Shown: piece by piece, positions 5,738-64,000 of the stretch
Layout: each line of letters begins with the position of its first letter
How positions within the stretch are numbered: the stretch's first letter is position 1
Assembly: GCA_024276995.1 (NCBI GenBank)
Contig: JAJRWB010000014.1
Span: 71,712 to 135,711 of the forward strand
Direction: 5' to 3'
Length of the DNA stretch: 64,000 nucleotides
Source: Candidatus Eiseniibacteriota bacterium
Lineage (GTDB): Bacteria > Orphanbacterota > Orphanbacteria > Orphanbacterales > Orphanbacteraceae
Position numbers and translations under genes: made by a program
The notes under the pieces: generated by a model
Databases searched by the model: none
Told to the model about the DNA's origin: nothing
Seen by the model: the letters and a program-made list of their open reading frames with translations, nothing else

Positions 5738-5766
5738 CTTGACACTCCCTGGGCCGCTTGGTAGAG
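5738..5766 (+). promoter_or_regulatory. sigma-70-type promoter TTGACA-N17-TAGAGT upstream of the TonB-dependent receptor gene
   Basis: Exact TTGACA at 5738-5743, a 17-nt spacer, then TAGAGT at 5761-5766. The SD sequence AAAGGAG and an ATG at 5857 lie downstream. Confidence 0.5.
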
Positions 5767-5856
5767 TGCGCGGAGTGTGCGGCGCAAAAACGGGATCGAT
5801 CCGGGCGGGCGGCCGCACCGTTCGAGAAATGGTTCTTGCCGAAAGGAGCGGAGAGT

Positions 5857-8571: not shown

Positions 8572-8610
8572 GACCACCGGGTGGTCCGCACCGCTGGGGA
8601 GGCTCGAAAA

Positions 8611-10806: not shown

Positions 10807-10876
10807 AAAGGACGGCGCCTGTAACGCCCATGTTCGCGGGGGCGATCGGAAAGTGAATGGAAGGGAGGAGAGAACG

Positions 10877-11854
10877 TTGAAGTCGATGAGGATCTTCCTG
10901 GCCCTCGCCGGGGTCGTCCTGATGCAGGGACCGGCGCAAGGGGGCGAGGTCTTCGCCAAGGTGGGAACCATCGGCGCCCAGTTTCTGAAACTAGGCGTGG
11001 GTGGTCGCGGCGTGGCGATGGGCGATGCGTTCGTCGCCGTGGCGGACGACGCGTCGGCGCTTTACTGGAACCCCGCGGGGATCGCCCAGCTGCAGGGGAA
11101 CAGCCATGTTTTTCTTTCCCATTCCACCTGGCCGGCGGAAATCGGCCATGAATTTGCCGGTTACGTCTTCACATACGGCTCGATTCCCGGTGTGCTCGGC
11201 GTGAGCGTCAACGTGCTGCAGATGGACCCGATGATCCGTACCACCGAGTACCACCCCGATGGGATCAACCTGGCGGGGTCGGAGGAACTCGAGCAGTTCG
11301 ACGCCGGCGATCTCGCCATCGGTTTCAGCTACGCCCAGTTTCTCACCGACAAATTCTCCTTCGGAGGAACGGTGAAGTGGATCCACCAGGGTCTGGAGGA
11401 GGAATTCGCCGAGGGGTTGAACTTCGACTTCGGAACGCTCTACCATACCGGTTTCCGGACGGTCACGGTGGGGATGACGATACAGAATATCGGTCCCGAA
11501 ATGAGCTTCATCGAGCAGCGTTTCTCCCCTCCGACGGCGTTCAAGCTCGGACTTTCGATGGATGCGTTCCGTGCGAACCGCCAGAACCTCCTCGTATCGA
11601 CCGAGTTTAACCACCTGAGTGATAACCAGGAGCGGGCGAACCTCGGCCTGGAGTACGAGTACACCCCTCTCGACAGAGTCTCCCTCGCCCTGCGCGGCGG
11701 TCTGACGCCGAAGCGGGATACGCAGCAGTACGCCTTCGGCTTCGGCGTCCGGTTCCCCACCAGCTCGAACGCCAGCGCGAAAGTGAACTACTCCTACAGC
11801 CAGCTCGATTTACTCGGAGGCGCGCACCAGATCAGTGTCAACCTGATCTACTGA
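10877..11854 (+). CDS. PorV/LptO-like outer-membrane beta-barrel protein (UPF0164 family)
   Basis: ORF 10853..11854. Signal peptide MRIFLALAGVVLMQG. The family motif ..GARGVAMGDAFVAVADDASALYWNPAG... Start taken as TTG 10877 or ATG 10886. Confidence 0.7.
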   Translation: MKSMRIFLALAGVVLMQGPAQGGEVFAKVGTIGAQFLKLGVGGRGVAMGDAFVAVADDASALYWNPAGIAQLQGNSHVFLSHSTWPAEIGHEFAGYVFTYGSIPGVLGVSVNVLQMDPMIRTTEYHPDGINLAGSEELEQFDAGDLAIGFSYAQFLTDKFSFGGTVKWIHQGLEEEFAEGLNFDFGTLYHTGFRTVTVGMTIQNIGPEMSFIEQRFSPPTAFKLGLSMDAFRANRQNLLVSTEFNHLSDNQERANLGLEYEYTPLDRVSLALRGGLTPKRDTQQYAFGFGVRFPTSSNASAKVNYSYSQLDLLGGAHQISVNLIY

Positions 11855-11894
11855 GCCGCGCGCCCGGTGACCGGCGGCCAAGGAGCGAACCGCC

Positions 11895-13394
11895 GTGAAA
11901 CGGTTTCTCACCCTTCTTCTCGTGATCGGGACGACCTTCGCATTGCCGCCGGTGATCCGCGCCGTGCGGGCGGATGGTGAACCGGCTTCCTCGTCGGGCG
12001 ATATCCGCTTCGTGTTCGACACGTCGTCGTTCCGAGGTTCCAACGCCGCCTCGCGGGAAGAGCTCTTCCTCCTCATCCCGAACCGGGAGCTGAAGTTCGT
12101 CAACCGGGGAAACGGACGCCTCGAGGCCGACATCGACGTTCGCGTACTGTTCAGGCGCTGGCCCACCGGGGAGGTTCTTCTCTACAAGACGATCAATGCG
12201 GTTCTCGAGACGCCGTCCAGCGAAGCGGCGAGGGGGATTCACGATCTGGAGGTGCTTCAGAAGCAGTTCTTCATCGAACCGGGACCGTTCGAGGTGGAGG
12301 TCACCGTTGCGGACCGGAACACCAGGGGCTTCGGTTTCTTCCACCTCTTCGGAAGGAGTCCGACGGAGGGAACCGCCTCGGGCCGTTTCGTGGCGAGGCG
12401 GTTCGCCCCGGAGGGACTTCAGCTTTCCGATCTCCTTTTCGCCCGGGGAACGGGAAAATCGATATCCGACGTGGTACCGAACCCGAACCGCCTCTACGGC
12501 GCGATGCTCCCGTCGCTTTCCTATTATTACGAAGCGTACGATCCTCCCGCCGATGGTGGAGATTCACCGGGAGAACTCTTTGTGCGCCACGAGATCGTGG
12601 GAGGCGACGGCACAGTTTATCTGAGGGAGGACCGGATACTCTCGCCCCTGGCCGAGGGGAAGGGATATCGGAACCGGATGAACCACGATCTGCGCTCACT
12701 GCCCGGCGGCGCGTACACCCTCCGGATCACGGCGAGGCCGCAGACACGCTCCGATTCGGTGATCGTCGAGGCGCCGTTTCACGTGGTGTGGCGCAAATCG
12801 GACATCTCCGCGCTGGAGGACGGTTCCGCCGCGGGCGACGAACTCTTCACCGAGATGAACCTCGACGACGAGATCGCCTCGCTCCGATACATTCTCGTTC
12901 CCGATGATCTTTCTCACCTCAAGGGCCTCCCCAGGGAGAAGCAGAAGGAGTGGATCGAGGCGTACTGGAAGGAGAAGGACCCGACGCCCGGAACGGAGGC
13001 GAACGAGCTGCGGATGGAGCATTACAGGAGGATTCAGCACGCGAATCAAAGATTCACCGCCATGCGCCAGAAGGGCATGGATACCGACAGGGGCCAGATC
13101 TACATCCGCTACGGCGAACCGGACGAGATCAGCAGCGGGTATTCGGCGCAATCGTTTATCACCCCCCTCGGGGGGCGCTCGCACCTTTCCGATCAGGCGG
13201 ACGTCACGGGATCACTCGGCGGCTTCAACGTCGAGGAAAAGGCGTACGAAATCTGGACGTATAGCGAACGAGGGCGTTTTCTCGGCGAGCGAAGAAATCG
13301 CGGAGCGGGGCTCGAGCTACGGTTCGTCTTCGTCGACGTGGAGGGTTGGGGCGATTACACCCTCATCCAAAGCACCGACCCGACGGAGTTCTGA
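11895..13394 (+). CDS. GWxTD-domain-like secreted protein
   Basis: GTG start with SD AAGGAG. Signal peptide MKRFLTLLLVIGTTFALPPVIRA. The C-terminal ..VDVEGWGDYTLIQSTDPTEF resembles the GWxTD family motif. This assignment is from memory. Confidence 0.65.
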   Translation: MKRFLTLLLVIGTTFALPPVIRAVRADGEPASSSGDIRFVFDTSSFRGSNAASREELFLLIPNRELKFVNRGNGRLEADIDVRVLFRRWPTGEVLLYKTINAVLETPSSEAARGIHDLEVLQKQFFIEPGPFEVEVTVADRNTRGFGFFHLFGRSPTEGTASGRFVARRFAPEGLQLSDLLFARGTGKSISDVVPNPNRLYGAMLPSLSYYYEAYDPPADGGDSPGELFVRHEIVGGDGTVYLREDRILSPLAEGKGYRNRMNHDLRSLPGGAYTLRITARPQTRSDSVIVEAPFHVVWRKSDISALEDGSAAGDELFTEMNLDDEIASLRYILVPDDLSHLKGLPREKQKEWIEAYWKEKDPTPGTEANELRMEHYRRIQHANQRFTAMRQKGMDTDRGQIYIRYGEPDEISSGYSAQSFITPLGGRSHLSDQADVTGSLGGFNVEEKAYEIWTYSERGRFLGERRNRGAGLELRFVFVDVEGWGDYTLIQSTDPTEF

Positions 13395-30508: not shown

Positions 30509-30523
30509 TGGCACATCCTTTGC
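30509..30523 (+). promoter_or_regulatory. sigma-54 (RpoN) -24/-12 promoter element TGGCAC-N5-TTGC
   Basis: TGGCAC at 30509-30514, ATCCT, then TTGC at 30520-30523, followed by T. An exact match to the -24/-12 core, directly upstream of the lpxL-lptC-lptB-rpoN operon. Confidence 0.45.
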
Positions 30524-32777: not shown

Positions 32778-34226
32778 ATGGAAATGAAGTTGGGCCTTCA
32801 GGCGCGGATGCTGCAGACGCAGAAGCTGGTAATGACGCCCCAGCTCCAGCAGGCGCTCCGTTTTCTCCAGATGCCCACACTCGAGCTGCAGCAGGTTCTG
32901 AAACAGGAAATCCTCCTCAACCCGGTACTCGAAGAGGTGGACGAGATCCTCGACGGCGAAGAGGAGGAGGCGGAGGCGCGCCGGGAAGAGCCGGAAGGGG
33001 CCGCGGAAGGGGCGAAGGAGGACGGCGATGCCCAGGGGGAAGAGAAGCAGCCGGAAATCGACTGGGACGAATACTTCCATTCCCCACAGGATTACAGCTA
33101 CAGGCGGGAGCAGGAAGGGGGGAGGGACGAAACGTACGAGCGGGTCCTGTCCACCACGGTGCTCCTGTCGGAGCATCTTCTCTCGCAGCTTCGCATCTCC
33201 ACCGACGACGACGAGATCCTGCGGATCGGGGAGTTCCTCATCGGCAGCCTCGACGAGCGGGGATTCCTAACCCTCGAGCTTTCCGAGGTAGCGGAATCGG
33301 TCCGCGCCGGCATGGAGAAGGTAAAAGAGGCGCTCGAGCTGATCCAGACATTCGACCCCGCCGGCGTGGGGGCGGCCGATCTACGGGAGTGTCTCCTCCT
33401 CCAGTTCCGCAGCGCCGGCGACGATCAGAGTCTCGCCTTCCGGGTGGTGCGCGATCACTTCGATGATTTCGTGCAGAACCGCTACGCCGAGATCGCGAAG
33501 AAGCTGAAAACCACGGCCGGCGAGATCCAGGACGCTTCCCGCGAGGTGGGCAAGCTGAACCCCCGGCCCGGGATGCTCTACGCCGACGAGGATCCGCGCT
33601 ACATCACGCCCGACCTTGTGGTCGATCGGGTGGGCGATGAGTACGTGGTCTACCTGAATGATCAGAACGTTCCGAGACTTCGCGTCTCCCGTACGTACGA
33701 GAAGTACATTACCGGCGGGAACAGCACCGACAGCACGACGAAGGAATACATCCGGAGCAAGCTGAACGCGGCGAACCAGCTCATCAACACGATCGAGAGG
33801 AGACGCCGCACCATGGTGAAGGTGATGAAGGCGATCGTCGACAACCAGCGGGAGTTCCTGGAGAAGGGAATCCGATTCCTCAAGCCGATGACGCTCCAGC
33901 AGGTGGCGGATGAGATCGGTATGCACGAGTCGACGGTGAGCCGCGTCACGTCGAGCAAGTATGTCCAGACCCCTCGCGGAGTGTTCGAGCTGAAGTTCTT
34001 CTTCTCCTCGAGCATACGATCGTACTCCGGCGAGGATGTGTCCACCAAGGGGGTCAAGGACAGGGTGAGGGAGCTGATCGAAAAGGAGGACAAGGCGCGT
34101 CCATTGAGCGATCAGAAGATCGTGGACCTGTTGAAAAGCGAGGGCTTCATGATCGCACGCAGAACGGTGGCGAAGTACAGGGAACAGATGGGACTGCTTT
34201 CCGCGCGCTACCGGAAACAGTTCTGA
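32778..34226 (+). CDS. rpoN: RNA polymerase sigma-54 factor
   Basis: ORF 32643..34226. ATG at 32778 gives MEMKLGLQARMLQTQKLVMTPQLQQALRFLQMP (region I). The RpoN box ..ARRTVAKYRE.. near the C-terminus. Confidence 0.9.
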   Translation: MEMKLGLQARMLQTQKLVMTPQLQQALRFLQMPTLELQQVLKQEILLNPVLEEVDEILDGEEEEAEARREEPEGAAEGAKEDGDAQGEEKQPEIDWDEYFHSPQDYSYRREQEGGRDETYERVLSTTVLLSEHLLSQLRISTDDDEILRIGEFLIGSLDERGFLTLELSEVAESVRAGMEKVKEALELIQTFDPAGVGAADLRECLLLQFRSAGDDQSLAFRVVRDHFDDFVQNRYAEIAKKLKTTAGEIQDASREVGKLNPRPGMLYADEDPRYITPDLVVDRVGDEYVVYLNDQNVPRLRVSRTYEKYITGGNSTDSTTKEYIRSKLNAANQLINTIERRRRTMVKVMKAIVDNQREFLEKGIRFLKPMTLQQVADEIGMHESTVSRVTSSKYVQTPRGVFELKFFFSSSIRSYSGEDVSTKGVKDRVRELIEKEDKARPLSDQKIVDLLKSEGFMIARRTVAKYREQMGLLSARYRKQF

Positions 34227-41565: not shown

Positions 41566-42953
41566 CACGACGCGTCCCGGCCGCTTCGCCCGGAGGAGAT
41601 CGCCGGGAGGAGGCGAATCCGCCCGGCGGCGCGGGGAAAGCGGAAGAAGCGCATTCTGCCGGCGCTTCGGCGGATCAGGATGATACCGAGACTGCCCATG
41701 AGAACGTTGGCCGCCCACATCGAGACGGCGGGGGGAAGGTAGCCTCTGTCCGCGAGTTTTTCGCCCCCCGTGAGGAAAAGGTAGTAGATCACGAAGAAGG
41801 CGATGCTGAAGCCGGCGCCCACCCCCAGACCGCCTCTCCTCGCGCGGATCCCGAGCGGCCCCCCGAGGAGGACGAAGACGATGCACGCCACGGGAAGGGC
41901 GTATTTCTTGTGGACCTCCACCATGTAGCGGTCGATCTTCTTTTGCCGGTCGTCGATCCTCTTCGAAAGGGCGGCGAGCTCGCGTCCCGAATCACGGATG
42001 GCCCGGCCGTATTCCCGGACGCGGAACGGTTCGATCGATCGTTTTTCCTTTTCCGGGGGACCCATCCTGTGGAGAATATCGAGCCGGGCGGCAATGAAGT
42101 TCGAAATGCTCTTCCTCCCTTCCGCCTCGATCTTGGCGATCTCTTCCCTGTACCCGGAAACCCGTTCGAGCATGTCGGCGGAACTGAGTTCCCTGTCCCC
42201 GCGGGTCTTCTTCTCCGATCGGACGAGATCGGACCCGATATTGGTGATTCTCACCGTGTGGGTTTCGAAGAGGATCCGCTGGTAGCGATCGGGGTTCTTC
42301 GCGTCCACCGCGTGGATCTCGCCGTCCTCGAGGTAGAGGTTGAGCACGTTTCCCCCGTCGGTGAATTCGAGGCGTCCCCGTTTCGCGATGATCGTTTCCT
42401 CTTCCTTGCCGGCGGCGTTCTTCTGGATCGTCACCGACTCGATCTCCGACGTTCTCTCGTTCAGCTTTTCCACGCGGATCGTATATCCTTGAACATTGTT
42501 GAAGGCGCCCGCCTTGATCGCGAGGGCGGGCCGTTTCCTGTGAATACTGATCAGAAGACTCGCGAGTCGATGGTTCGCGTCGGGAAGGACATCGTTGTTG
42601 AACTGGACGAGGAGCGCGGCGACGACGATCGATGCGACGATCGGCGGAGAGAGAATCTGCCACATGCTCATCCCGGCGGCCTTCATGGCGGTGATCTCGT
42701 TGTTCGCCGAAAGCCGGCCGAACGCCATCAGGGCGGCGACGAGTGTCGCCATGGGAACGATGAGCGCCACCATCCATCCGAGGGAGAGGAAGAAGACCTC
42801 CGCCACCACGCCGAGGGCGATTCCCTTCCCGAGAAACAGGTCGATGTAGTCGACGAGCATATCCATGACCAGGATGAAGGTGATCACCGCCATGCCGGCG
42901 AGGAAAGGCCCGATGTGCTGCTTGAGGATGTAGAGGCTCAGGGTACGTGTCAT
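41565..42953 (-). CDS. lptF: LPS export ABC transporter permease (LptF/LptG, YjgP/YjgQ family)
   Basis: The minus-strand ORF 41565..43040 contains MTRTLSLYILKQHIGPFLAGMAVITFILVM.. from the ATG at 42953. Paralogous and adjacent to lptG. Confidence 0.8.
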   Translation of the reverse strand: MTRTLSLYILKQHIGPFLAGMAVITFILVMDMLVDYIDLFLGKGIALGVVAEVFFLSLGWMVALIVPMATLVAALMAFGRLSANNEITAMKAAGMSMWQILSPPIVASIVVAALLVQFNNDVLPDANHRLASLLISIHRKRPALAIKAGAFNNVQGYTIRVEKLNERTSEIESVTIQKNAAGKEEETIIAKRGRLEFTDGGNVLNLYLEDGEIHAVDAKNPDRYQRILFETHTVRITNIGSDLVRSEKKTRGDRELSSADMLERVSGYREEIAKIEAEGRKSISNFIAARLDILHRMGPPEKEKRSIEPFRVREYGRAIRDSGRELAALSKRIDDRQKKIDRYMVEVHKKYALPVACIVFVLLGGPLGIRARRGGLGVGAGFSIAFFVIYYLFLTGGEKLADRGYLPPAVSMWAANVLMGSLGIILIRRSAGRMRFFRFPRAAGRIRLLPAISSGRSGRDAS

Positions 42954-43135
42954 TCCAGCTCCCTTCCAGCATCCCACCTTATAAGATGAACCCCGCCCAC
43001 TCAATCGCCTTTCCATCGATTCGTCTCCGGTGGAGGACAAGCCGTCCCGCTCCGGGTACGTTTGGATCGACGTCGCGCCGGAAACGGGAGAACCGCGGGG
43101 CCGACGGTGTGGTGTGGTTCTTGCATCTCATTGAT

Positions 43136-43152
43136 ACGGCACAGGATACAAT
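43136..43152 (+). promoter_or_regulatory. perfect 17-bp dyad ACAGGAT-ACA-ATCCTGT, a candidate enhancer-binding-protein or regulator site (about -85 relative to the sprA sigma-54 promoter)
   Basis: A palindrome read directly. Its size and distance are typical for a bEBP upstream activating sequence. Confidence 0.35.
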
Positions 43153-43162
43153 CCTGTCCCTC

Positions 43163-43194
43163 CGCGAGCCGCCACGGCGGTTTCCCCTGCCGTG
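43163..43194 (+). other. GC-rich perfect inverted repeat GCCGCCACGGC-N10-GCCGTGGCGGC in the lptF/sprA divergent intergenic region
   Basis: An 11-bp perfect stem with a 10-nt loop. It lies immediately upstream of the sigma-54 -24 element. Confidence 0.4.
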
Positions 43195-43202
43195 GCGGCA
43201 CC

Positions 43203-43217
43203 GATGGCACGACGTTT
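43203..43217 (+). promoter_or_regulatory. sigma-54 (RpoN) -24/-12 promoter element TGGCACG-N4-TTGC upstream of sprA
   Basis: TGGCAC at 43203-43208, GACGT, then TTGC at 43214-43217, followed by G. Matches the consensus including the G after the GC dinucleotide. About 135 nt upstream of the sprA start. Confidence 0.5.
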
Positions 43218-43352
43218 GCGATTCTCATCATGGTTTTCACCCGGCGGCGAGGTCTGTCCGGATGTCTATGGAATCGGTTCATTTCCCCAGGCGGGGGAAG
43301 GGTCGCCGGAAACGGGGATCCCGCGACCCGGCCGCCGGAGAGGTCACCTATC

Positions 43353-46300
43353 TTGGGCAGGGTTTCCACACGCCCTCACCGGGCGATACTTGCCCTTCTC
43401 CTCGGCTCGCTCCTGCAGGCGGGGACGCTGCTCGGCGTTGAGGTGCCGATCCGCGAACCGAGTCTCATCCGGAACTGTGTCGACCGGAATTATCCTCCCC
43501 CCATGGCGGGCGTGGGCGGCGCCCCGTACCCGGAAGGGCCGCTCACGCGCCTCAAGGTGAAGGAGAAGATATCGAAGACGACCACCACCGTGCGGGTCGA
43601 CCTCGATCGCCGCGTCGTGGTGGTGGTCGCCTCGAGGGACGGCGTCCCTCTCACGTGGCCGTGGGTCGGCACCTTCGAGGAGTACCGCGCCGAGTGGGAA
43701 CGATTCGAACGCTTTCGGAAAATGAAAAACATCGGGGTGGGGGGGAAGAAGAAGGGAGGGGGGCCGCGTGAGACGGGCCTTTTCGATATCGACCTTCCGG
43801 TTCGCTTCCCCAAGACGCTGAGCCGCATTATCGGCCAGGGGGCGAACATCAAGGTTTCGGGAAGCGAATCGATCACCTTCTCGGGGGAAACGCGTTACAA
43901 CCTGAAGAACCGGGCGAACGAAGCGGGCGGCCAGAGGATCTTTCCCGAACTCGACATGCGCCAACAGCTCCAGGTGAACCTCACCGGAACGATCGGCCAG
44001 AAGGTGAAAGTCGAGATGCAGCACAACTCCGAATCCCAGGTCCCCCTCGAGAACAGGATCAAACTTCGATACGAGGGTGATGAAGACGAGGTGATCAGCA
44101 AGATCGAGGTGGGGAACACGAACCTGAGTCTCCCGGGAAACCAGTTCGTCAGCTTGAGCGCGCAACAGCAGGGCCTGTTCGGCATCAAGGTGATGGGCAA
44201 GGCGGGAAAGCTCGACTTCACGTCCGTTCTCAGCCAGCAGCAGGGACAGACCGACCGGGAAACGTTCTCCGGCCGGTCGAGGCGCGACTCGGTGGTCATC
44301 GACGACTTGAACTACGTTCGGAACCGCTATTTCGTGGTAAACGACTACGATTCGATCGTCGACATTCGCGTCTTTCTCGACGACGACAACGTGACCAACA
44401 ACGACGGCTCCCAGCTCCCCGGAAAGGCGTTTCTCTACGACACCACCGACGCGTTCAACCGAGACGTTTTCGAGATCGGGGCTTTCGACGAACTCGTCGT
44501 GGCGCAGGACTTTATCATCCTGAAGGAAGTCGGCCTTCTCCAGATGCAGCGCTCCCTCCGGGATAATGAGCAAATCGCCGTCTGGTTCACCCGTTGGAAC
44601 GGCGCCCTCGGTCGGATCGACACGGTCGGCTTCGTTCCCGACCCGGTGCCGGCGGTGTTCGCCGCCGGCGACAGCGTCGAGCTGAAGATGATCCGGCCCC
44701 GTGCCGAGGATTACCGTCCTCCGCCGATCGACGACAGCCAGACCGATTCGAGGTTCGCCCTCACGTGGTACTACCAGCTTCGGAACGTCTACGACTTGAG
44801 GGCGCGGAATATCAAGAAGGAGAACTTCGAGATCACCATCTACCGGAAGGAGCCCGGCGCCACCGAGCGGTTCGACCGCGACGAGAACGGCATACCGTTC
44901 ATCCAGATCATGGGTCTCGACCTGATCGGCGACAACGAGACGAATCTTCCCGATTTCAAAGTCGACGATTTCTACTGGGCATGCGATCCGAGGGTCAATC
45001 CGGGCACGTCGAACCGTCTCGACGAGCGCTTCCGGCCCCTCTCGGCGCCCGACACCCTCGGCCTTCCGCCGGGGAACCTCCCGTTCTGGCCCGACCGGCT
45101 CGTCTATCTGGACGACGGGCTTCTCTGGTTCCCCGATCCTCGCCCGTTCGATCCGCAGTACAACCACCAGAAATGCGGCGACGAGGTGCTCACCCTCGCC
45201 GAGAGGAACCGCACGATCTACGACAAGTACGATCCGAAGGCGACCGACTCGCGCTACGAAATCGAGGTGAAGTACTCCACCGCGCAGTCATCGTTATCCC
45301 TCGGTCGATCGAATATCCTCGAAGGGAGCGAGGTGGTGAAACTGAACGGCCGGACACTCACGCGGGGGACCGATTACCGAATCATCTACGAGATCGGCCA
45401 GATCGAATTCATGACCGACGAAGCGCTTGACGACAACGCCGACATATCGATCGACTTCGAGTACGCTCCTTTTCTCGCGCAGGCGCAGAAATCGCTCATC
45501 GGGACCGCCCTTTCGTACAATATGTCCGACAAGCTGAGCATGTCGGGGATCTTCCTCTACAAAGGGAAACGCACTCCCTTCCGGCGTCCCCGTCTCGGCC
45601 AGGAGCCGTCCCGGATCTTCGTCAGCGGCCTGTCGCTCAACACGAACCGCCAAGTCGATTTTCTCACCCGGTGGATCGATGCCGTGCCCGGCATCCGGGC
45701 GCGGGAGAAGTCGAACCTCTCGCTCTCGTTTGAAACGGCGGCCACCTTCCCGAACCCGAATACGAAGAACGCGATCTATGTCGATGACATGGAAGGAACG
45801 GAAGAGGTCTCTTCGTTCGGCCTCACCCGGCGACAGTGGTACTACATGTCGATTCCCTCGTTGCCGGGGGCGGTGAGCGAACTCGAACCGTCAAACCGCT
45901 TCATCGACGTCGACTGGTACAACCCGAAAAACGCCACCACCCGAGGCGACCTGAACCCCGACCTCACGCAGGACGAGAAGATCAAGTTCATCCCGGTCAT
46001 CGAGGTCGCCCTACGGAAGGGGACGATCGCGAGCGGAGGCGCGGACGGAAGCGGTGGGTGGGGAGGGATCATGCGCCTCGTGTCGAAGACGGGACTCGAT
46101 TTGAAGGACCGGAAGTTTCTCGAGGTGTGGGTGAACGATTTCGGGAAGAACAAGGGCCGGATGCACATCGACATGGGGCTTCTCGGCGAGGACGCGATGT
46201 GGGGCCTCGATCCCCCCAACGGCGAGATCGATACGGAAGACTCGAACCTCGACGGTGTGCTCGACGATTCGGGCAACGACGACCCGCTGCTCGACGAGGA

Positions 46301-49300
46301 CACCGGCTTCGACGGCCTGTTCGACGCGGACGAACCTCCCGGCGCCGAGGATGACAACTGGGCGTACGACGAGAACGAGCCGGACGACTATTCGAGGATC
46401 AACGGGAGCGAGGGAAACGGCTATCTCGACACCGAGGACCTGAACGGGAACGGGGGGAGTCCCGACAGGGAAAAGGGATACTTCCGATTCGATCTCGATT
46501 TCGAGAGTGGTGAGAACGTGGTCGCCCACGGCTTGCAGGAGGAAGGGAAGAACTGGAGGCTCTACAGGATTCCTCTCGCGAAGGCGAAGGCGACGACCAT
46601 CGAAAGCGAGCCGACCTTCGATCAGGGGATCAAGTATGTGCGAATCTGGTTCGAGGGGGTCGACACCACCGACGCCCGCTTCCAGATCGCCTCGATGGAA
46701 GTGACGGGAAACCGCTGGCTCGAAGCGGGGATCCAGGATACATTGGGGAACCGGATCGCCGATTCCGACCTCCCCCCGGACGAGATTTTCGCCGCCGGCG
46801 TGATCAACAACAAGGACGGCGAGGACTATGACGCCCCCCCGGTGGAGATTCTCGTCCAGCGGGGGATCCCGGAGAAGGAACAGTCGCTCCTCGTGCAGTA
46901 CGAAAACATCAGGCCGGGGCACACGGGAACCGTCTTCCGGGCCCTCTTCGAGGACGAGGACTACACCCGCTATGAGCAGATGGAATACTGGGTGCAGCTC
47001 GCCGACCCGAACCGCCCGGAAGAGACCGACGTGTTCGAAGATCCCTTCCCTGTTTTCTTCTATCGTTTCGGCGGCGATTCGCTCAATTTCTACGAGGTGA
47101 GCGACACCCTCGATGGAAGCGGATGGCAGCGGGTGGAGGTCGACCTCGCCGAGATGACGCGCCTCAAGCTGATCGAAGAGAGCGATACGATCTCTTTGTG
47201 GGGGAAGAATGTTCCGGTCCGCTCGAGCGAAAGGGATGGGCGGGTGCTTCGTGTGGTCGGCCAGCCGAGCATGACGAAGGTGAGGCGTCTCACCTTCGGT
47301 GTGATGAACCCGTCGAAGACGAAAGAACTGACCGGCATCATATGGGTCGACGATCTTCGCCTCGTGAACGTGAAAGGGGACGCCGGCTATGCGGCGCGCT
47401 TCGGCCTCGATGTTTCCCTTTCCGATTTTCTTTCGCTCAGCGGCGACCTGCGTGTCGTCGGGAAGGAGTTCCGGCAGCTCACCGGAGGCGGTGGAGGACC
47501 GAGCGGCAGAACGGAGGACAATCCGCGCAAGGGGAGCGACAACCGCTCGCTTTCCCTCAAGGGGAAGGTCAATCTCTCGAAGTTTCTCGAAGGTCCGGGG
47601 ATTACGCTGCCGGTCGACTGGGGATGGTCGTCCACGCTGAGTGCGCCGGAACTGCAGACGGGGTCCGACATCGTTCTCGAGAATCCCGCGGATGAGAAAT
47701 CAGAGAGCCATGCGAAGAACATCGGCATCAACCTCAACCGATCACGCAAGTCGGGGAATCCCTTCCTCTACTACACGCTCGACAACATGAACCTCCGTGT
47801 ATCGGCCGATCGGAAGGAGGCGCTCGGCCCGACGAAGATCGACAGTTCGTGGTCGGTCGGGGTCGACTGGCGCTACACGTACAGCCCGCGGTTCAAGACC
47901 GACCTCACCGTGTTCCGCGACTGGCGGGTGAACCCTCTTCCCAAGAGCGGCCAACTGACGGCGAGCCGAAAACGAAACGAAACGAGAAGCCTCGATGTCC
48001 GCTCCGGGAACACGAGAATCTCCGCGGGGCGCACAACGACGTCGTCCTTCACGTTCGCCATGTCGCCGCTGAACAGCAAGACGGTGGGGACGAATTTCGA
48101 ATTCTCCGCCACGAGGGATCATCTCTATGGGAATCCGCTTTCCATCTTTCCGTCGCTCAACAGCGGGTTCGAAACGAAGCGGAATCACAGCGGCAGCGTG
48201 ACATACACGCCGGGGTTCCGGAAGTATCTCGGGTGGTTGAATCCGAAATTCTCCTACGATACGCGCTTCACAGACGATCAGCCTCCCACGAGGACGGTGA
48301 CGGAGGTCGACCCGGTCACCGGGGAGGTGAGCACCGTGCGGCGGATTCACAACGTGGGGAACCAGAACACGTCCCGCGTCGACTTCTCGGTGAGCCTCCG
48401 TAAGCTCGCCGCCCTGCTTCCCGGCGGGACGAAACAGACCGGTCCCGGGGCGAGGCAGAGCAACGCTCCGCCGGACAGCGCCTCCGCCGCGCCGGCGAAT
48501 AGGAAAGGGCCGGGCGCCTTGTCGATCGCGAAGGCGATCCGTTCCTTCGGTTCGAGGATCGGCGATATTAGCGGATCGGTGGCTTTGAAGAAGAGCTCGG
48601 GGTACAATGATCTTTCGGGGAGGCCCGGCCTCGACTACCAGTTCGGCCTGAAATCGGAGGTGGATGAGAACCTCCAGTTCAACCAGGGAGTGCAAAGGAG
48701 GAGAGCGGACAAGAGCCGGGACCTGCAGACGCGCGCCTCAACGGCGATACGTCTCCCCCGTTCGATGAATCTGCGCCTCTCGTTCAACCGCTCGCTCCAA
48801 AAGAGCGACCAAAGCCGCAACAAGTCGGAAAAGGAATCGATCACCTGGCCGGAATTCAACTATTCGTGGGACGGAATCGAGGATCTGGGAAAGCTCAAGA
48901 AGTACGTCAAGAATGCCTCTCTCAACGTGTCGTACCGCGGAAAGAGGGACCGCTCGGGCGTCTCCCTCTCCGACCTCGACACGGAGAGGAAATCGAAGAG
49001 TTGGTCGCCCCTCGCGCAGATCGACGCCGAGTGGGTGAACGGGCTGAGAAGCCAGGTCTCCGTCGACCAGTCGGAAGAGCGGGATCGGAACCTGAGAGGC
49101 GGGGGTTCGGAGACGATCCGCACGAGCCGGGACGTCACCGGATCGGTGAGCTACACGAAGTCGACCCGCAAGAAGGTGAACATCCCGATCCTCGGGAAGG
49201 GGAGGAAGGGGAGCACCTACACGGCGACCACCACGTTCCGGCTTTCGGTCCGCTACTCCCGTCAGAAGGAGGAGGAACCGAAGCGCGATCTTCTGAATAC

Positions 49301-49463
49301 GAACAGGCGAACATTCGATATATCGCCCTCCGTCTCGTGGACATGGCTGCAGAATCTGTCGGGAAGCCTCGAACTGAGATTCGGGGAGAACAGGGACCTG
49401 AAGAATGAGAACAAGAGTACCCGGACGGTGGGGGCTTCGGTTTCCGCGCTCTTCAAGTTCTAG
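43353..49463 (+). CDS. sprA: T9SS outer-membrane translocon SprA/Sov (cell-surface protein SprA), about 2036 aa
   Basis: One uninterrupted 6.4-kb ORF (43062..49463). The likely start is TTG 43353 after SD GGAGAGG, giving the signal peptide MGRVSTRPHRAILALLLGSLLQAG. The N-terminal SprA-family region (..FPKTLSRIIGQGANIKVSGSESITFSG..), the huge size and the beta-rich C-terminus are consistent with SprA. Confidence 0.8.
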   Translation: MGRVSTRPHRAILALLLGSLLQAGTLLGVEVPIREPSLIRNCVDRNYPPPMAGVGGAPYPEGPLTRLKVKEKISKTTTTVRVDLDRRVVVVVASRDGVPLTWPWVGTFEEYRAEWERFERFRKMKNIGVGGKKKGGGPRETGLFDIDLPVRFPKTLSRIIGQGANIKVSGSESITFSGETRYNLKNRANEAGGQRIFPELDMRQQLQVNLTGTIGQKVKVEMQHNSESQVPLENRIKLRYEGDEDEVISKIEVGNTNLSLPGNQFVSLSAQQQGLFGIKVMGKAGKLDFTSVLSQQQGQTDRETFSGRSRRDSVVIDDLNYVRNRYFVVNDYDSIVDIRVFLDDDNVTNNDGSQLPGKAFLYDTTDAFNRDVFEIGAFDELVVAQDFIILKEVGLLQMQRSLRDNEQIAVWFTRWNGALGRIDTVGFVPDPVPAVFAAGDSVELKMIRPRAEDYRPPPIDDSQTDSRFALTWYYQLRNVYDLRARNIKKENFEITIYRKEPGATERFDRDENGIPFIQIMGLDLIGDNETNLPDFKVDDFYWACDPRVNPGTSNRLDERFRPLSAPDTLGLPPGNLPFWPDRLVYLDDGLLWFPDPRPFDPQYNHQKCGDEVLTLAERNRTIYDKYDPKATDSRYEIEVKYSTAQSSLSLGRSNILEGSEVVKLNGRTLTRGTDYRIIYEIGQIEFMTDEALDDNADISIDFEYAPFLAQAQKSLIGTALSYNMSDKLSMSGIFLYKGKRTPFRRPRLGQEPSRIFVSGLSLNTNRQVDFLTRWIDAVPGIRAREKSNLSLSFETAATFPNPNTKNAIYVDDMEGTEEVSSFGLTRRQWYYMSIPSLPGAVSELEPSNRFIDVDWYNPKNATTRGDLNPDLTQDEKIKFIPVIEVALRKGTIASGGADGSGGWGGIMRLVSKTGLDLKDRKFLEVWVNDFGKNKGRMHIDMGLLGEDAMWGLDPPNGEIDTEDSNLDGVLDDSGNDDPLLDEDTGFDGLFDADEPPGAEDDNWAYDENEPDDYSRINGSEGNGYLDTEDLNGNGGSPDREKGYFRFDLDFESGENVVAHGLQEEGKNWRLYRIPLAKAKATTIESEPTFDQGIKYVRIWFEGVDTTDARFQIASMEVTGNRWLEAGIQDTLGNRIADSDLPPDEIFAAGVINNKDGEDYDAPPVEILVQRGIPEKEQSLLVQYENIRPGHTGTVFRALFEDEDYTRYEQMEYWVQLADPNRPEETDVFEDPFPVFFYRFGGDSLNFYEVSDTLDGSGWQRVEVDLAEMTRLKLIEESDTISLWGKNVPVRSSERDGRVLRVVGQPSMTKVRRLTFGVMNPSKTKELTGIIWVDDLRLVNVKGDAGYAARFGLDVSLSDFLSLSGDLRVVGKEFRQLTGGGGGPSGRTEDNPRKGSDNRSLSLKGKVNLSKFLEGPGITLPVDWGWSSTLSAPELQTGSDIVLENPADEKSESHAKNIGINLNRSRKSGNPFLYYTLDNMNLRVSADRKEALGPTKIDSSWSVGVDWRYTYSPRFKTDLTVFRDWRVNPLPKSGQLTASRKRNETRSLDVRSGNTRISAGRTTTSSFTFAMSPLNSKTVGTNFEFSATRDHLYGNPLSIFPSLNSGFETKRNHSGSVTYTPGFRKYLGWLNPKFSYDTRFTDDQPPTRTVTEVDPVTGEVSTVRRIHNVGNQNTSRVDFSVSLRKLAALLPGGTKQTGPGARQSNAPPDSASAAPANRKGPGALSIAKAIRSFGSRIGDISGSVALKKSSGYNDLSGRPGLDYQFGLKSEVDENLQFNQGVQRRRADKSRDLQTRASTAIRLPRSMNLRLSFNRSLQKSDQSRNKSEKESITWPEFNYSWDGIEDLGKLKKYVKNASLNVSYRGKRDRSGVSLSDLDTERKSKSWSPLAQIDAEWVNGLRSQVSVDQSEERDRNLRGGGSETIRTSRDVTGSVSYTKSTRKKVNIPILGKGRKGSTYTATTTFRLSVRYSRQKEEEPKRDLLNTNRRTFDISPSVSWTWLQNLSGSLELRFGENRDLKNENKSTRTVGASVSALFKF

Positions 49464-50346
49464 CGCGGTCACCGTCGTCCTCGGTCTGGTGTGGGCGATG
49501 CCGTCGTTCGACGGGAGCGTCGCGATGAAATACCTGGAAGAGCAGGTCGCTTTCGGGCCGCGGGTGCCGGGAAGCGACGCGCATCAAAAGACGCTCGCAT
49601 ACATCACCGCCGCCCTCGAAGAGAGCGCGGACCGCGTGACCGGCCGGGACTTCACCCTCGTGAGCGCCCTCACGGGAGATACGACGGTCTGCCGGAACGT
49701 GATCGCCTCGTTCGGCCCCGAACGGAAGGATCGGATCTTCTTCGCCGCCCACTGGGATTCGAGGGCGCTCGCCGACCGGGAAGGGGACGGCGCGAAAAGG
49801 ATGAAGCCGGTGCCGGGGGCGAACGACGGGGCTTCGGGCGTTGCGATTCTTCTCGCCTTGGCGCCCCTTCTGGCGGAAAATCCCCCGCCGGTGGGCGTCG
49901 ATCTTCTCTTTCTCGACGGCGAGGACCAGGGCGTTCCGGGGGATCCCGCCACGTTCTGCGCCGGATCGCAGGCGATGGCCGCCGCGGCGTCGATCACCGG
50001 TTTTCGACCGGCGTGGGGGCTGGTAATCGATCTCGTGGCCGGGAAGAGGGTGAAATACTACCCCGAGGAGCACACCGTCCGCCTCTACCCGGGGTTGATG
50101 AATACCGTCCTCGATATCGTCGAGAAGAAACTGCCCGGCGACGTCGACCGTTCCCGCTAGATCGACGTGTACGACGATCATGTCCCCTTCCTCGAGGCGG
50201 GAATCCCGTGCGCCGTCCTTTTCGGCGCGGGGGACCCGAACTGGCACACCCTCTCCGACATTCCCCGCCACTGTTCGGAAAGGAAGCTCGCGGGCGTGGG
50301 AGGTCTCCTTCTCGAGCTCGTTTACGGCGATTACGAATTGCCTTGA
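49405..50346 (+). pseudogene. glutaminyl-peptide cyclotransferase / M28-family zinc peptidase-like gene interrupted by an in-frame TAG at 50158-50160
   Basis: The ORF 49405..50160 has M28/QC motifs (..FFAAHWDSRA.., ..ANDGASGVAILLALA..). The same frame continues directly after the TAG with the conserved C-terminus IDVYDDHVPFLEAGIPCAVLFGAGDPNWHTLSDIP..LLLELVY and ends at 50346. The N-terminal start is uncertain: ATG 49405 would overlap sprA by 59 nt, and ATG 49495 is the alternative. Confidence 0.6.
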
Positions 50347-61479: not shown

Positions 61480-62384
61480 TGCGTATCTTCGACTATTTCT
61501 TTCTTACCCGGCCGATCGTGCTGATCCCGTCGTGGGCGTTCCTGATCGTCGGTTACCTGCGGGGCATCGAGAAGACCGGTTCGGGGGGCGGCGGCCTTTC
61601 GATGGCCTGGCTTCTCCTCACGCTCGTCCTGTCGGGCGTATACATTGTGAACCAGATTTTCGATCGGGAGACCGACCGGGAGAACGGGAAGCTCTATCTT
61701 CTCGCCGAGGGCCATGTGACGGTAAGGAGCGCCGCCGTCGAAGCGGCGATCCTTATCGCCGCCGGGCTCGTCATTTCTCTCATCGCCCGGCGCGATCATT
61801 TTCTTTGGCTCGCGGCGAGCGCGATCCTCGGTCTCCTCTACTCCGCCGACCCGGTGCGCCTCAAGGGACGCCCGATTCTCGATCTGGCGGCGAACGCCGT
61901 CGGTTACGGCGCCGTTGCCTTTCTGTACGGCTTTTCCCTTTCCGCCCGGGTCGACGGCGAAGCCCTTCTCATGACCGTGCCGTACATGCTTCTCGTCGGG
62001 GCGATCTTCCTCCACACGGCGGTGGTCGACAGCGAAGGGGATGCCGCCGCCGGGCTGCGCACGAGCGCCACCCTCCTCGGCGCGAAGGGCGCGTCGATCG
62101 TCGCCTGGATCCTTCTGGCCGGGGCGTTCTTCGCCGGACTTCTCCTGCGCGAGCCGTATCCCCCCGTGGCGGCGCTGGGGGGTCTCTTTTTCTTCAGCTG
62201 GGGACTCCTCTCGCCGGGGAAGAAAGGGAGTTCACTGAGCTACCAGTGGGGCAGCCTGATCTTCGTTCTTCTCGTGGTGATCCGCTTTCCCCGTTTCGGC
62301 GCTCTCCTGGTGATCGTCTTCGCCGTCACGAGGCTCTACTACCATTTCCGGTTCGGTAAGGTATACCCGCGGCTCGATTTCTAA
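61476..62384 (+). CDS. UbiA-family prenyltransferase (integral membrane)
   Basis: ORF 61407..62384. ATG at 61476 (ATGA overlap with the deacetylase). About 8 TM helices. The Asp-rich motif NQIFDRETDREN. Confidence 0.65.
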   Translation: MMRIFDYFFLTRPIVLIPSWAFLIVGYLRGIEKTGSGGGGLSMAWLLLTLVLSGVYIVNQIFDRETDRENGKLYLLAEGHVTVRSAAVEAAILIAAGLVISLIARRDHFLWLAASAILGLLYSADPVRLKGRPILDLAANAVGYGAVAFLYGFSLSARVDGEALLMTVPYMLLVGAIFLHTAVVDSEGDAAAGLRTSATLLGAKGASIVAWILLAGAFFAGLLLREPYPPVAALGGLFFFSWGLLSPGKKGSSLSYQWGSLIFVLLVVIRFPRFGALLVIVFAVTRLYYHFRFGKVYPRLDF

Positions 62385-63389
62385 GGTCGGCGAACGATCG
62401 GGAACGAGGCGGCGCGCCGCGAAGCGGCCGGGGAGATCCCACTCGAGAGAGGGCGCCGTCTCGGCTCCGGTCATCAGCGACGCCAACGGCTTGTAACTCT
62501 CGGAGAAGAGAATGTATCGTTTCCCGTTTTCGAGAGGCCTGTACCGGATCGCGTGATTGTACAGCTCCGAAAGGCGGTCGAGCGAGAGAAGCTCCTCGGA
62601 GACGAGTTGGTTGAGCGAGGAGGGATAGCGGTCGTTCACCACGCGGTACATCTCGAGAACGATCCTCACGTTCCGGATCTCCCTTTCCGAGTTATACGTC
62701 GCCACGCGATCACCGAGGAGCGGCGAGGCGGTCACCCGTGGACTCGGGGTGAAGAGGAGGGAAAGGAGGAATGCCGCCGCCGGCATGAGGGCGAGGATGA
62801 TCAGGTGAAGCGCCACGCTCCGGCCGGAGAAGGAGATCGGCTGGTTCAGCGTGACCTTTCCGAGGTTCGCCGGGATGCCGGGAAAGACCCGCTTCGGTTC
62901 GAGCCGTGCCGACTCATCCATCCTGCGGACCGCCTCGAGAAGAACCGATTCCACCTTCACGCCGCAACCGGGACCGTACGGGATGACCTCGCTCTCGGGA
63001 GCGAAATCGAAGCGACCCTTTCGCCAGGTAAGCAGTTCGCTCACGACTTCGTGGACGAGATCACGCACGAGGCGCGCCGTTTCGACGGGGGTGATCATCC
63101 CCTCGCGCAGGAGAATCTCGACGAACGGATACTCGGCCCGCGCCTCGAGTCGGATCGCTTTATGGGCCATATGTTCAGGAAGGATACGTCGTTCCATGAT
63201 GAACGCCTTCAGGGGATCGGCCGACGTGACACCCCTGTCCCAGGTCGAGATGATCACCCCTTTCTCGAAGACGAGGGCGATTCTCTCCTTTTCGCCGAAT
63301 AGGCGCAGCACGCCGGTCTTCTCCTGCACGGCGAGAAGCTGGAGCACTTCGGCCACGGGAAAGTCGACGAGATTTCCCCGCAGGCTCAT
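62232..63389 (-). CDS. DUF4388-domain protein with a C-terminal membrane and periplasmic-like region
   Basis: Minus-strand ORF 62232..63977. The conserved protein starts at ATG 63389 after SD GGAGGAACC. N-terminus MSLRGNLVDFPVAEVLQLLAVQEKTGVLRL is the DUF4388 signature. The long N-extension in the ORF track is unlikely. Confidence 0.6.
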   Translation of the reverse strand: MSLRGNLVDFPVAEVLQLLAVQEKTGVLRLFGEKERIALVFEKGVIISTWDRGVTSADPLKAFIMERRILPEHMAHKAIRLEARAEYPFVEILLREGMITPVETARLVRDLVHEVVSELLTWRKGRFDFAPESEVIPYGPGCGVKVESVLLEAVRRMDESARLEPKRVFPGIPANLGKVTLNQPISFSGRSVALHLIILALMPAAAFLLSLLFTPSPRVTASPLLGDRVATYNSEREIRNVRIVLEMYRVVNDRYPSSLNQLVSEELLSLDRLSELYNHAIRYRPLENGKRYILFSESYKPLASLMTGAETAPSLEWDLPGRFAARRLVPDRSPTLEIEPRVYLTEPEMVVEPRDGEDDHQESAETGKADHHEKNEDQAAPLVAQ

Positions 63390-64000
63390 CGGTTCCTCCC
63401 TTCGCGCCGCGCACCGAAATGGCGGCGGATGAGGAGGACCGCGTCGAAGAGAACCGATCCGTAGAGAGGAACGAACACCACCGCGAAGAGGAGGTTCTCG
63501 AGCGGCTCGAGGGCCGGGGCGGAGAGAATGGGGAACGGTTTCACCACCGGTCCGCGGCACGCCCAACCGAGGAGGAAAGCGAGGGCCGGCGCCGCGAAGA
63601 GGACGCCCTTCACATAACGGCCGAGGTAAAGGTGGGCGCCGCCGGGGAAGAGGATTCCAAGACTGAGCGCCACGGGGCGGTGGTACTGCACCGTGCCCGG
63701 GGCCCAACGGAAGGAGTGACTCCCCTCGGCGCACGAGGGACAAACATCGGTCCTGTCCCGGCGGCGGCGGCACTCCCTGCAGATCACGGCGCCGCAGCGA
63801 ACGCATTTCATCGTCCGGGGACGCGTCGCGCCGAAGCGCCACGACACGAACAGGAGGGCGGCTATCGGGATCGCCGCCCATGCCGGCAGGGGAAAGAGGA
63901 GCCGCCGCGTGCTGGAGAGCGACTCGCCCCACGTCAGGCCGTCGCGGCGAGTGCCTCCGGTGAGAAAGCGGTTCCACAGTCGTGACACCGGCAGCGCCTC
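63386..64000 (-). CDS. hypothetical membrane protein with a CxxC..CxxC zinc-ribbon motif; reaches the window end
   Basis: Minus-strand ORF 63386..63988 (MSRLWNRF..). Contains ..MKCVRCGAVICRECRRRRDRTDVCPSC.. plus TM segments. ATGA overlap with the downstream DUF4388 gene. The true start may lie beyond the window. Confidence 0.35.
   Translation of the reverse strand, partial: EALPVSRLWNRFLTGGTRRDGLTWGESLSSTRRLLFPLPAWAAIPIAALLFVSWRFGATRPRTMKCVRCGAVICRECRRRRDRTDVCPSCAEGSHSFRWAPGTVQYHRPVALSLGILFPGGAHLYLGRYVKGVLFAAPALAFLLGWACRGPVVKPFPILSAPALEPLENLLFAVVFVPLYGSVLFDAVLLIRRHFGARREGRNR

Follow-up and report, generated by a model that had tools for sequence, protein, structure and literature searches.

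[quoted passage not shown]

41568-42953, minus strand: lptF, LPS export permease (Pfam LptF_LptG, 9e-87)
42976-42981 (-10, TAAGGT) and 42999-43004 (-35, TTGAGT), minus strand: sigma-70-like promoter of lptF, hexamers read from the sequence; blocks CACCTTAT and ACAAC conserved in alignment A4
43353-49463, plus strand: sprA, T9SS outer-membrane translocon Sov/SprA, 2036 aa (TIGR04189, Pfam SprA_N)
49405-50346, plus strand: M28-family (glutaminyl-cyclase-like) gene, overlapping the 3' end of sprA

The sprA product scored 532 bits against the TIGR04189 equivalog model (cutoff 200). Its TTG start is preceded by GGAGAGG (43337-43343), M1 forms an invariant column in a 16-sequence alignment, and a signal-peptide-like N-terminal segment follows the TTG. 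A PorV/PorQ-family gene likewise lies in the window. In every locus for which genes were called, sprA is followed by a Peptidase_M28 gene; that of the window is 63% identical to its orthologue in L001, the closest relative (SprA 71% identical), and is broken by an in-frame TAG (50158-50160), beyond which the frame is conserved. The two genes are probably co-transcribed.

Within the 399-bp non-coding region between lptF and sprA, upstream of sprA and on its strand, lies one element with the form of a sigma-54 promoter:

43205-43219, plus strand: sigma-54 -24/-12 element TGGCACG-ACGT-TTGC, TGGCACGACGTTTGC (exact match, conserved core)

Its GG and GC dinucleotides stand at the fixed spacing, and the sole deviation from the consensus TGGCACG-N4-TTGCW is the final W, which is G. 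The element is 134 nt from the sprA TTG, matching the ~135 nt that an earlier sequence-only reading had given as its distance from the 2036-aa ORF, and its position predicts a transcription start for sprA at ~43231 (range 43229-43233). Throughout the 64 kb, TGGCAC-N5-TTGC occurred at two sites versus 0.03 expected, a count reached by none of 100 shuffles; moreover both sites are intergenic and oriented into the downstream gene. At the second one (30509-30523) the -12 is immediately adjacent to a conserved sigma-70-like TTGACA-17-TATTGT, which shows that overlapping arrangements exist in this genome. Like sprA, the LPS gene cluster lpxL-lptC-lptB-rpoN bears a conserved sigma-54 site.

Two further candidates in this region were rejected: i) an in-frame ATG at 43230, at the predicted transcription start, which could have served as a leaderless alternative start, is not conserved, being missing in L001 and separated from the sprA start by an sprA-frame stop in the L009 group; ii) CTTGCAT (43120-43126), considered as a second -12 or a -35 box, is present in four lineages only, at variable distance, and across loci neither a fitting -10 nor a GG partner goes with it. 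A search of the intergenic region and leader against Rfam returned no match at E<=1, and the leader folded no better than its shuffles (z = -0.22).

Conservation of the element was assessed in 18 related loci (the in-group; SprA 39-71% identical; 213 kb, both strands searched). The motif TGGCA[CT]-N5-TTGC was found in all 18, exactly once in each, always upstream of sprA and on the sprA strand, while the other sprA loci held only three copies in 981 kb (background, about three per 2 Mb of searched strand). Among the 17 distinct orthologous sites the nine positions T-G-G-C-A and T-T-G-C were invariant in every one and the N5 spacer varied, whereas the intergenic DNA around the promoter was otherwise unalignable, with a mean column identity of 43%. 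In ~250 kb of clade sequence, coding DNA contained no copy of the motif. The two findings that, according to the sequence-only reading, would have spoken against the -24/-12 element, a lack of conservation upstream of orthologous sprA genes and a similar density of matches in coding regions, were thus not obtained. The one argument for viewing the element as a functionless match is that any short motif may turn up by chance, and this view is already refuted, with practically no probability left to it, by an expectation of 0.03 per window and by conservation in every in-group locus at a background of ~3 matches per 2 Mb. A sigma-54-like motif, CGGC[AC]GG-N4-[CT]TGCT, that recurs ~250-300 nt ahead of sprA in loci of Zixibacteria and Ignavibacteria was rejected as it falls inside an upstream ORF (L047, 2004-2948), which from its translation we take to be murB.

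A different reading accepts the sigma-54 site but regards it as mainly poised or occluding, most sprA transcription coming from another, unrecognised promoter. The overlap at 30509-30523 provides a precedent in this genome. Against it, none of the in-group loci showed a conserved or recognisable sigma-70-like promoter ahead of sprA, and in the window none was found between 42800 and 43500. Moreover, in five loci (L010, L088, L090, L126 and L127) the sprA ATG follows only 14 nt after the TTGC, leaving no space for another promoter there. We thus consider such occlusion improbable. As proposed by the sequence-only reading, then, sprA is very probably preceded by a genuine sigma-54 promoter, judging from motif, placement and conservation.

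In nine more distant loci the same divergent arrangement of lptF and sprA was accompanied by a conserved sigma-70-type promoter, TTGAC[AG]-17-TAnnnT, and by no sigma-54 site. The pattern TTGAC[AG]-16/18-TA...T was present in nine of nine of these out-group loci versus none of the 18 in-group loci; therefore the promoter class differs between the two groups at an orthologous locus. The class of promoter at sprA would thus have been switched during evolution, and the contrast between sigma-54-driven and sigma-70-driven orthologues at one syntenic locus would be a clean case, provided by nature, of one promoter class replacing another.

The window also encodes the sigma factor expected to recognise the sigma-54 promoter of sprA, as had been noted from the sequence:

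32778-34226, plus strand: rpoN, sigma-54 (Pfam AID, CBD and DBD; TIGR02395, 443 bits)

Region I is present in the protein and its RpoN box reads ARRTVAKYR. The gene sits in the usual lptB-rpoN-hpf-hprK neighbourhood. In at least six further lineages an rpoN orthologue shares a contig with sprA, the contigs being paired by their length and, in three of these lineages, also by record name. Sigma-54 holoenzyme binds a -24/-12 promoter but cannot open it unaided, and hence an AAA+ enhancer-binding activator should be required for sprA expression. No such activator (PF00158) was found among the ~45 window ORFs scanned; the protein that opens the sprA promoter would accordingly be encoded outside the window.

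As the binding site of such an activator the sequence-only reading had pointed to a 17-bp palindrome, and it had noted a GC hairpin between the palindrome and the promoter. Both sequences, like the -24/-12 element and rpoN, were found in the window where that reading had placed them:

43141-43157, no strand: 17-bp palindrome ACAGGATACAATCCTGT, centre ~82 bp upstream of the predicted start
43168-43199, no strand: GC inverted repeat GCCGCCACGGC-N10-GCCGTGGCGGC, 11-bp perfect arms, 10-nt loop

As an activator binding site the palindrome has two points in its favor: its symmetry is perfect and its location, about -82, fits some activators, and L001 carries a copy of the 10-nt core GATTGTATCC that runs the opposite way. 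However, neither L001 nor any other lineage has a dyad in the corresponding place. The palindrome is unique as a sequence, and as a class (perfect inverted repeats with 7-bp arms) it is at chance level, such repeats being scattered through most of the 18 orthologous upstream regions without a preferred position. Furthermore its position coincides with a conserved AT-rich, IHF-like island. We therefore hold it very unlikely that the palindrome is the activator site, and this part of the earlier proposal is abandoned. The GC hairpin ends 5 bp ahead of the -24 element and folds far better than its shuffles in the window (z = -5.1). As a conserved structure it was rejected, because the 62 nt before the -24 gave a mean z of only -0.57 over 17 lineages and the window alone stands out; on this comparison it is a lineage-specific addition. 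It was also rejected as an intrinsic terminator, as neither strand carries a T-run and a terminator scan gave no hit there.

Three other features of the intergenic region were conserved:

43023-43038, no strand: dyad 1, GTCTCC-GGTG-GAGGAC (GT-N12-AC), candidate half of an upstream activating sequence (alignment A4, PWM)
43044-43059, no strand: dyad 2, GTCCCG-CTCC-GGGTAC (alignment A4, PWM)
43120-43157, no strand: AT-rich island between the dyads and the promoter, including the 17-bp palindrome (AT profile)

The two dyads, whose centres are 21 bp apart, the distal one 176 bp and the proximal one 155 bp upstream of the -24 GG, were found as a tandem in all 18 in-group loci, and the G, T, A and C positions of dyad 1 were invariant in the alignment. 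The tandem emerged from alignment only: k-mer counting for a universal short motif between -230 and -3 gave none above shuffles. A PWM scan of the whole window returned dyad 1 as the best match and dyad 2 as the second-best, and the tandem pattern occurred once per clade locus but only twice in the 981 kb covering the remaining sprA loci. A similar match at 34452, inside hpf, is not conserved in L128-L130 and was taken as chance. The consensus of the dyads (GTCyCC-N4-GrGGAC / GTCgCC-N4-GGGTAC) matches no activator site known to us.

As for the island, the AT fraction, averaged over 17 lineages, was 0.44-0.50 at -85 to -55 from the TGG versus ~0.30 in the flanks. On the minus strand of the window it contains an IHF-like sequence, TATCAATGAGATG (43124-43136), a weak match with one mismatch to WATCAANNNNTTR; similarly weak matches (zero to two mismatches) recur at -69 on the plus strand or -81 on the minus strand in ~10 lineages.

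The tandem dyad might just as well serve the sigma-70-like promoter of lptFG, as an operator or activator site, or act on both genes. One alternative to our model keeps the sigma-54 promoter as real but assigns the dyads to lptFG under a conventional regulator, sprA being activated from elsewhere, through a site with poor conservation or by an activator independent of DNA sites. Activators that need no DNA site exist (FlgR, CtcC-type). The positions of the dyads lend this reading some weight: i) relative to the putative lptF promoter, their centres fall near -60 and -80; ii) the start of dyad 1 is nearly fixed relative to lptF, at 62-77 bp from its ATG in 13 of the 18 loci; iii) between subclades the distance to lptF is steadier than that to the sigma-54 element (-136 to -182).

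On the other hand, several observations tie the dyads to the sigma-54 element. Inside subclades the distance from dyads to promoter is steady to 1-2 bp (-182/-181/-182 in one set; -170 to -172 in eight lineages). In L001 and L125, 60-70 bp have been inserted on the lptF side, and the distance from the dyads to the sigma-54 element has stayed within 1 bp of that in their relatives. Moreover the three distance classes, which together cover 14 of the 18 loci, differ by ~10 and 31 bp, that is by whole helical turns, so the dyads keep the same helical phase to the -24 GG; the exceptions are the L009 group and L010, with dyads ~0.4 turn out of phase. Finally, tandem dyads two turns apart that are followed by an AT-rich island and then by a -24/-12 promoter are the classical arrangement of an enhancer. 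On this balance the assignment of the dyads to lptFG, with sprA activated by other means, is a possible but less probable account. The tandem dyad appears a better enhancer candidate than the 17-bp palindrome, and the chances are about even that it is the enhancer of the sprA sigma-54 promoter.

Our preferred model is as follows. Transcription of sprA, and probably of the overlapping M28 gene, would run from the sigma-54 promoter at 43205-43219, starting near 43231 and depending on sigma-54 in vivo. The AAA+ enhancer-binding activator would act from the tandem dyad (43023-43038 and 43044-43059) as its most likely enhancer, and would reach the promoter by DNA looping aided by the conserved AT-rich, IHF-like island at ~43120-43157. 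Taken as a whole, this arrangement is likely, and the pore is then probably made only when switched on by an ATP-driven activator. A more speculative extension, which we regard as rather unlikely, is that the single conserved enhancer of tandem GT-N12-AC dyads between lptFG and sprA, together with an envelope-sensing AAA+ activator, couples pore synthesis to LPS export; the sigma-54 switch would then have replaced an ancestral constitutive sigma-70 promoter and made the T9SS pore inducible rather than housekeeping. The conserved sigma-54 promoter by itself would make pore building, in one deep FCB lineage, an all-or-none, signal-gated decision.

To our knowledge, T9SS regulation has been described almost only in Porphyromonas (PorXY/SigP) and a few flavobacteria, with the core components there largely constitutive. 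We also know of no cultured member of the phylum to which this lineage belongs, for which the promoter region offers a defined DNA fragment for in vitro work. Comparative genomics by Francke and colleagues in 2011 reportedly tied sigma-54 regulons to functions of the envelope and outer surface, with sigma-54 as a "controller of the bacterial exterior"; here sprA and the LPS cluster lpxL-lptC-lptB-rpoN both bear conserved sigma-54 sites, and sprA with its candidate enhancer motif would be a concrete, testable addition to that idea.

The locus resembles the classical sigma-54 promoters (glnAp2/NtrC; nifH/NifA with TGT-N10-ACA and IHF; pspA/PspF) in its consensus TGGCACG-N4-TTGC, in the tandem dyad-symmetric sites 100-200 bp upstream and in an AT-rich segment with weak IHF-like matches between these sites and the promoter, but differs in its target, a T9SS translocon gene. 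In Porphyromonas gingivalis the sprA orthologue, sov, is co-transcribed with ruvA under PorXY/SigP (PMC4800418). There too an alternative sigma factor and a signal-transduction input govern the translocon gene; however, SigP is an ECF factor of the sigma-70 family acting at the ruvA promoter, whereas the promoter described here is of the sigma-54 class, with ATP-dependent activation (PMC4800418). Sigma-54 control of a T9SS translocon had been put forward as new, a claim that needs narrowing in view of other T9SS-linked genes: in Flavobacterium psychrophilum a sigma-54 promoter drives the T9SS-linked gliding operon remFG-sprCDBF, as shown by start-site mapping and reporter mutagenesis (PMC9723704). 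For sprA itself the novelty stands as far as the consulted portions of that study's tables go, which do not associate sprA with sigma-54 promoters (SM4) (PMC9723704). The two cases share a sigma-54 -24/-12 element upstream of T9SS or gliding genes within the FCB superphylum. They differ in that remFG-sprCDBF encodes the adhesin SprB and its helpers and has another promoter alongside the sigma-54 one (motif SM5, in that study an alternative sigma-factor motif; PMC9723704), while here the gene downstream is that of the translocon.

The ORF downstream of the -24/-12 element is SprA/Sov (Pfam SprA_N; TIGR04189 equivalog, 532 bits vs a cutoff of 200), and homologues of this protein carry the label Candidatus Eisenbacteria. 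The sequence favours TTG 43353 as its start codon, giving 2036 aa: this codon has GGAGAGG 10 nt before it and a signal-peptide-like segment after it, and residue 1 is invariant across an alignment of 16 sequences; the public annotation (P0001, 1986 aa) starts 50 codons later at ATG 43503 and omits the signal-peptide-like N-terminus. The gene is separated from the divergent lptF by 399 bp in a window of 63% G+C, and is followed by an overlapping M28 peptidase-family gene and then by rimP, nusA and infB. The features of this locus are:

41568-42953, opposite strand to sprA: lptF, upstream of sprA, with lptG beside it
42976-43004, minus strand: lptF-proximal block, sigma-70-like TTGAGT-17-TAAGGT, ~25-50 nt upstream of the lptF ATG
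43023-43038: dyad 1, GTCTCCGGTGGAGGAC, GT-N12-AC
43044-43059: dyad 2, GTCCCGCTCCGGGTAC, GT-N12-AC
43124-43136, minus strand: IHF-like match TATCAATGAGATG in an AT-rich island
43141-43157: 17-bp palindrome ACAGGATACAATCCTGT, inside the AT-rich island
43168-43199: perfect inverted repeat GCCGCCACGGC-N10-GCCGTGGCGGC, 11-bp arms
43205-43219, sprA strand: sigma-54 -24/-12 element TGGCACGACGTTTGC
49405-50346: M28-family gene, overlapping sprA and kept downstream of it in all related loci with called genes

The M28-family gene, possibly glutaminyl-cyclase-like, encodes a DPxWHT motif. Its window copy carries an in-frame TAG (50158-50160) at a Ser of the orthologue in L001, the closest related locus, and the frame is conserved for 61 further codons; nonsense mutation, sequencing error and read-through are all possible readings of the TAG.

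The -24/-12 element upstream of the 2036-aa ORF reads as the sequence-only reading had described it. The 64 kb contain two copies of TGGCAC-N5-TTGC where 0.03 would be expected, a count not reached in any of 100 shuffles; both sites are intergenic, point into the downstream gene and stand alone in the window at a weighted consensus score of 14.5 of 15; weaker matches by the same score were not enriched over shuffles (6 vs 8.3). The in-group used to assess conservation comprised 18 further loci with lptFG divergent from an adjacent sprA and with 39-71% SprA identity to the window protein; membership of in-group and out-group was set by sequence identity, and several in-group loci are closely related, leaving ~15 independent lineages. 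Each of the 18 (4-18 kb) contains TGGCA[CT]-N5-TTGC exactly once, always upstream of sprA and on its strand. In 981 kb covering the sprA loci of other groups (Zixibacteria, Ignavibacteria and others) the pattern turned up three times, never in that position and orientation. In an intergenic alignment with a mean column identity of 43%, T-G-G-C-A and T-T-G-C were invariant in 17 of 17 distinct sequences and the five spacer bases varied, which by sequence is the footprint expected of a sigma-54 site. Moreover, in five loci of a subclade with 40% SprA identity (L010, L088, L090, L126 and L127), the sprA ATG lies exactly 14 nt past TTGC with the signal peptide directly after it; the element must therefore be the promoter there, predicting a near-leaderless mRNA with a leader of 0-5 nt. 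Thus the sigma-54 promoter proposed ahead of sprA is strongly supported by rarity and by conservation in orthologous upstream regions, and we hold it to be very probable.

The divergent lptF-sprA arrangement is kept in an out-group of nine loci (L011, L014-L017, L064, L082, L083 and L089; SprA ~30-34% and LptF ~40-44% identical). None of the nine has a sigma-54-like site or tandem dyads in this region, and all nine conserve a sigma-70-type TTGAC[AG]-17-TA[AG]nnT upstream of sprA, which is found in 0 of the 18 in-group loci. Promoter class, as read from these motifs, thus differs cleanly between two sets of orthologous, syntenic sprA loci, indicating a class switch at an orthologous locus. At the expected sprA start of L017 (~2840-3000) there are four tandem copies of a ~40-nt unit (…atcccgtgtgtttcctgcctggccatctgcggc…).

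The element was conserved in the relatives, but the 17-bp palindrome previously put forward as the activator's upstream activating sequence was not. The palindrome itself is present; what L001 has in common with it is limited to a 10-nt core that runs the other way, and neither L001 nor any other lineage examined has a dyad at this position. Most orthologous regions do contain perfect inverted repeats with 7-bp arms, at positions that are random. We therefore rejected the palindrome as an enhancer in favour of a conserved tandem dyad. The 11-bp GC hairpin noted between palindrome and element does exist; its fold is highly non-random (z = -5.1) and unique in the window, it has no T-run and is not terminator-like, and in other lineages the corresponding segment does not stand out (mean z = -0.57).

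In alignment A4 of the in-group intergenic regions, three islands are conserved: the lptF-proximal block, with the motifs CACCTTAT and ACAAC shared by most in-group lineages, the tandem dyad and the -24/-12 element. The tandem dyad (GT-N12-AC, N5-6, GT-N12-AC; centres 21 bp apart in the window) is present in 18 of 18 in-group loci and gives the two best PWM hits of the whole window; with a relaxed pattern, each clade locus holds a single copy and the 981 kb of other sprA loci hold two. An extra hit inside hpf at 34452 was not conserved and was discarded. Changes in the arms are not compensatory, fitting a protein site rather than an RNA stem. Measured from dyad start to TGG, the window, L001 and L004 stand at -182, -181 and -182; eight lineages fall at -170 to -172, L010 at -158, L088, L090 and L126 at -150 to -152, and the L009 group at -136. 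The three largest classes are ~10 and 31 bp apart, placing 14 of 18 loci in the same helical phase (0.62-0.90 turn). Furthermore, an insertion of 60-70 bp separates lptF from the dyads in L001 and L125, yet the dyads are as far from the sigma-54 element as in their relatives. On the other hand, the dyads start 62-77 bp from the lptF ATG in 13 loci, so they may act on lptFG instead of, or together with, sprA. We give the conserved tandem dyad, rather than the palindrome, about even chances of being the sprA enhancer. The DNA between dyads and promoter becomes richer in AT (0.44-0.50) from -85 to -55 relative to TGG, and IHF-like matches with 0-2 mismatches are found repeatedly at -69(+) or -81(-).

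In the proposed mechanism, sigma-54 holoenzyme would form a closed complex on 43205-43219, and an AAA+ activator would assemble on the tandem dyads, 155-176 bp upstream of -24, contact the polymerase by looping over the AT-rich segment and open the promoter at the expense of ATP. Transcription would start near 43231, yielding a ~120-nt leader, then sprA and probably also the overlapping M28 gene. How the motifs would act is inferred here from the well-established way in which sigma-54 promoters work. Within 43231-43300, the predicted leader has short stretches in common with the nearest relatives (L001, L009, L012 and L121), namely GGTTTNCAC, which lies at the predicted start, TCTATGGA and TTCCCCAGG; its fold was not significant (z = -0.22), and Rfam gave no match. 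No sigma-54 activator gene was found among the scanned ORFs of the window. A 581-aa DUF4388-domain protein at the window edge (62235-63977, minus strand) is not a sigma-54 activator.

The sigma factor gene itself lies in the same window, as had been noted:

32778-34226: rpoN, with region I, core-binding and DNA-binding domains and RpoN box ARRTVAKYR
30509-30523: second consensus sigma-54 site TGGCACATCCTTTGC, downstream neighbour lpxL-like, upstream neighbour kdsD, leading into lpxL-lptC-lptB-rpoN

The surroundings run kdsB-pyrG-kdsA-kdsD, then lpxL-like-lptC-lptB-rpoN-hpf-hprK-ptsH-ptsI, and in at least six lineages an rpoN orthologue lies on a contig that matches the sprA contig in length (by record name the same contig in L001, L004 and L007). 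The second site is conserved, again with a variable spacer, in three other lineages (L128 2730, L129 2729 and L130 2711), suggesting that the clade's sigma-54 recognises the canonical motif. Its -12 TTGC directly adjoins a conserved sigma-70-like TTGACA-17/18-TATnnT (TTGACA-17-TATTGT in the window, to 30552), which hints at dual or competing sigma-54/sigma-70 promoters ahead of rpoN; autoregulation by sigma-54 of its own operon via this site is possible. Elsewhere in the window, an outer-membrane/T9SS-related cluster (5758-13394) has no sigma-54 site nearby:

5758-8571: TonB-dependent-receptor-like protein
8581-10806: 741-aa protein with a weak T9SS C-terminal sorting domain
10853-11854: PorV/PorQ-family protein
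11895-13394: GWxTD-domain protein

In P. gingivalis, the ECF sigma SigP and PorXY govern the sprA orthologue sov, which shares a transcript with ruvA (PMC4800418). Mapped sigma-54 promoters of F. psychrophilum include that of remFG-sprCDBF, confirmed by reporter mutagenesis, and in the available passages of that paper sprA is present in the tables without association to the sigma-54 promoters (SM4) (PMC9723704). Full-text searches joining sigma-54/RpoN with T9SS, or Eisenbacteria with T9SS, gave nothing closer. Sigma-54 regulons are said to concern, in general, the cell exterior. The sprA promoter fits this theme, and is a well-supported case of an already known type of regulatory element.
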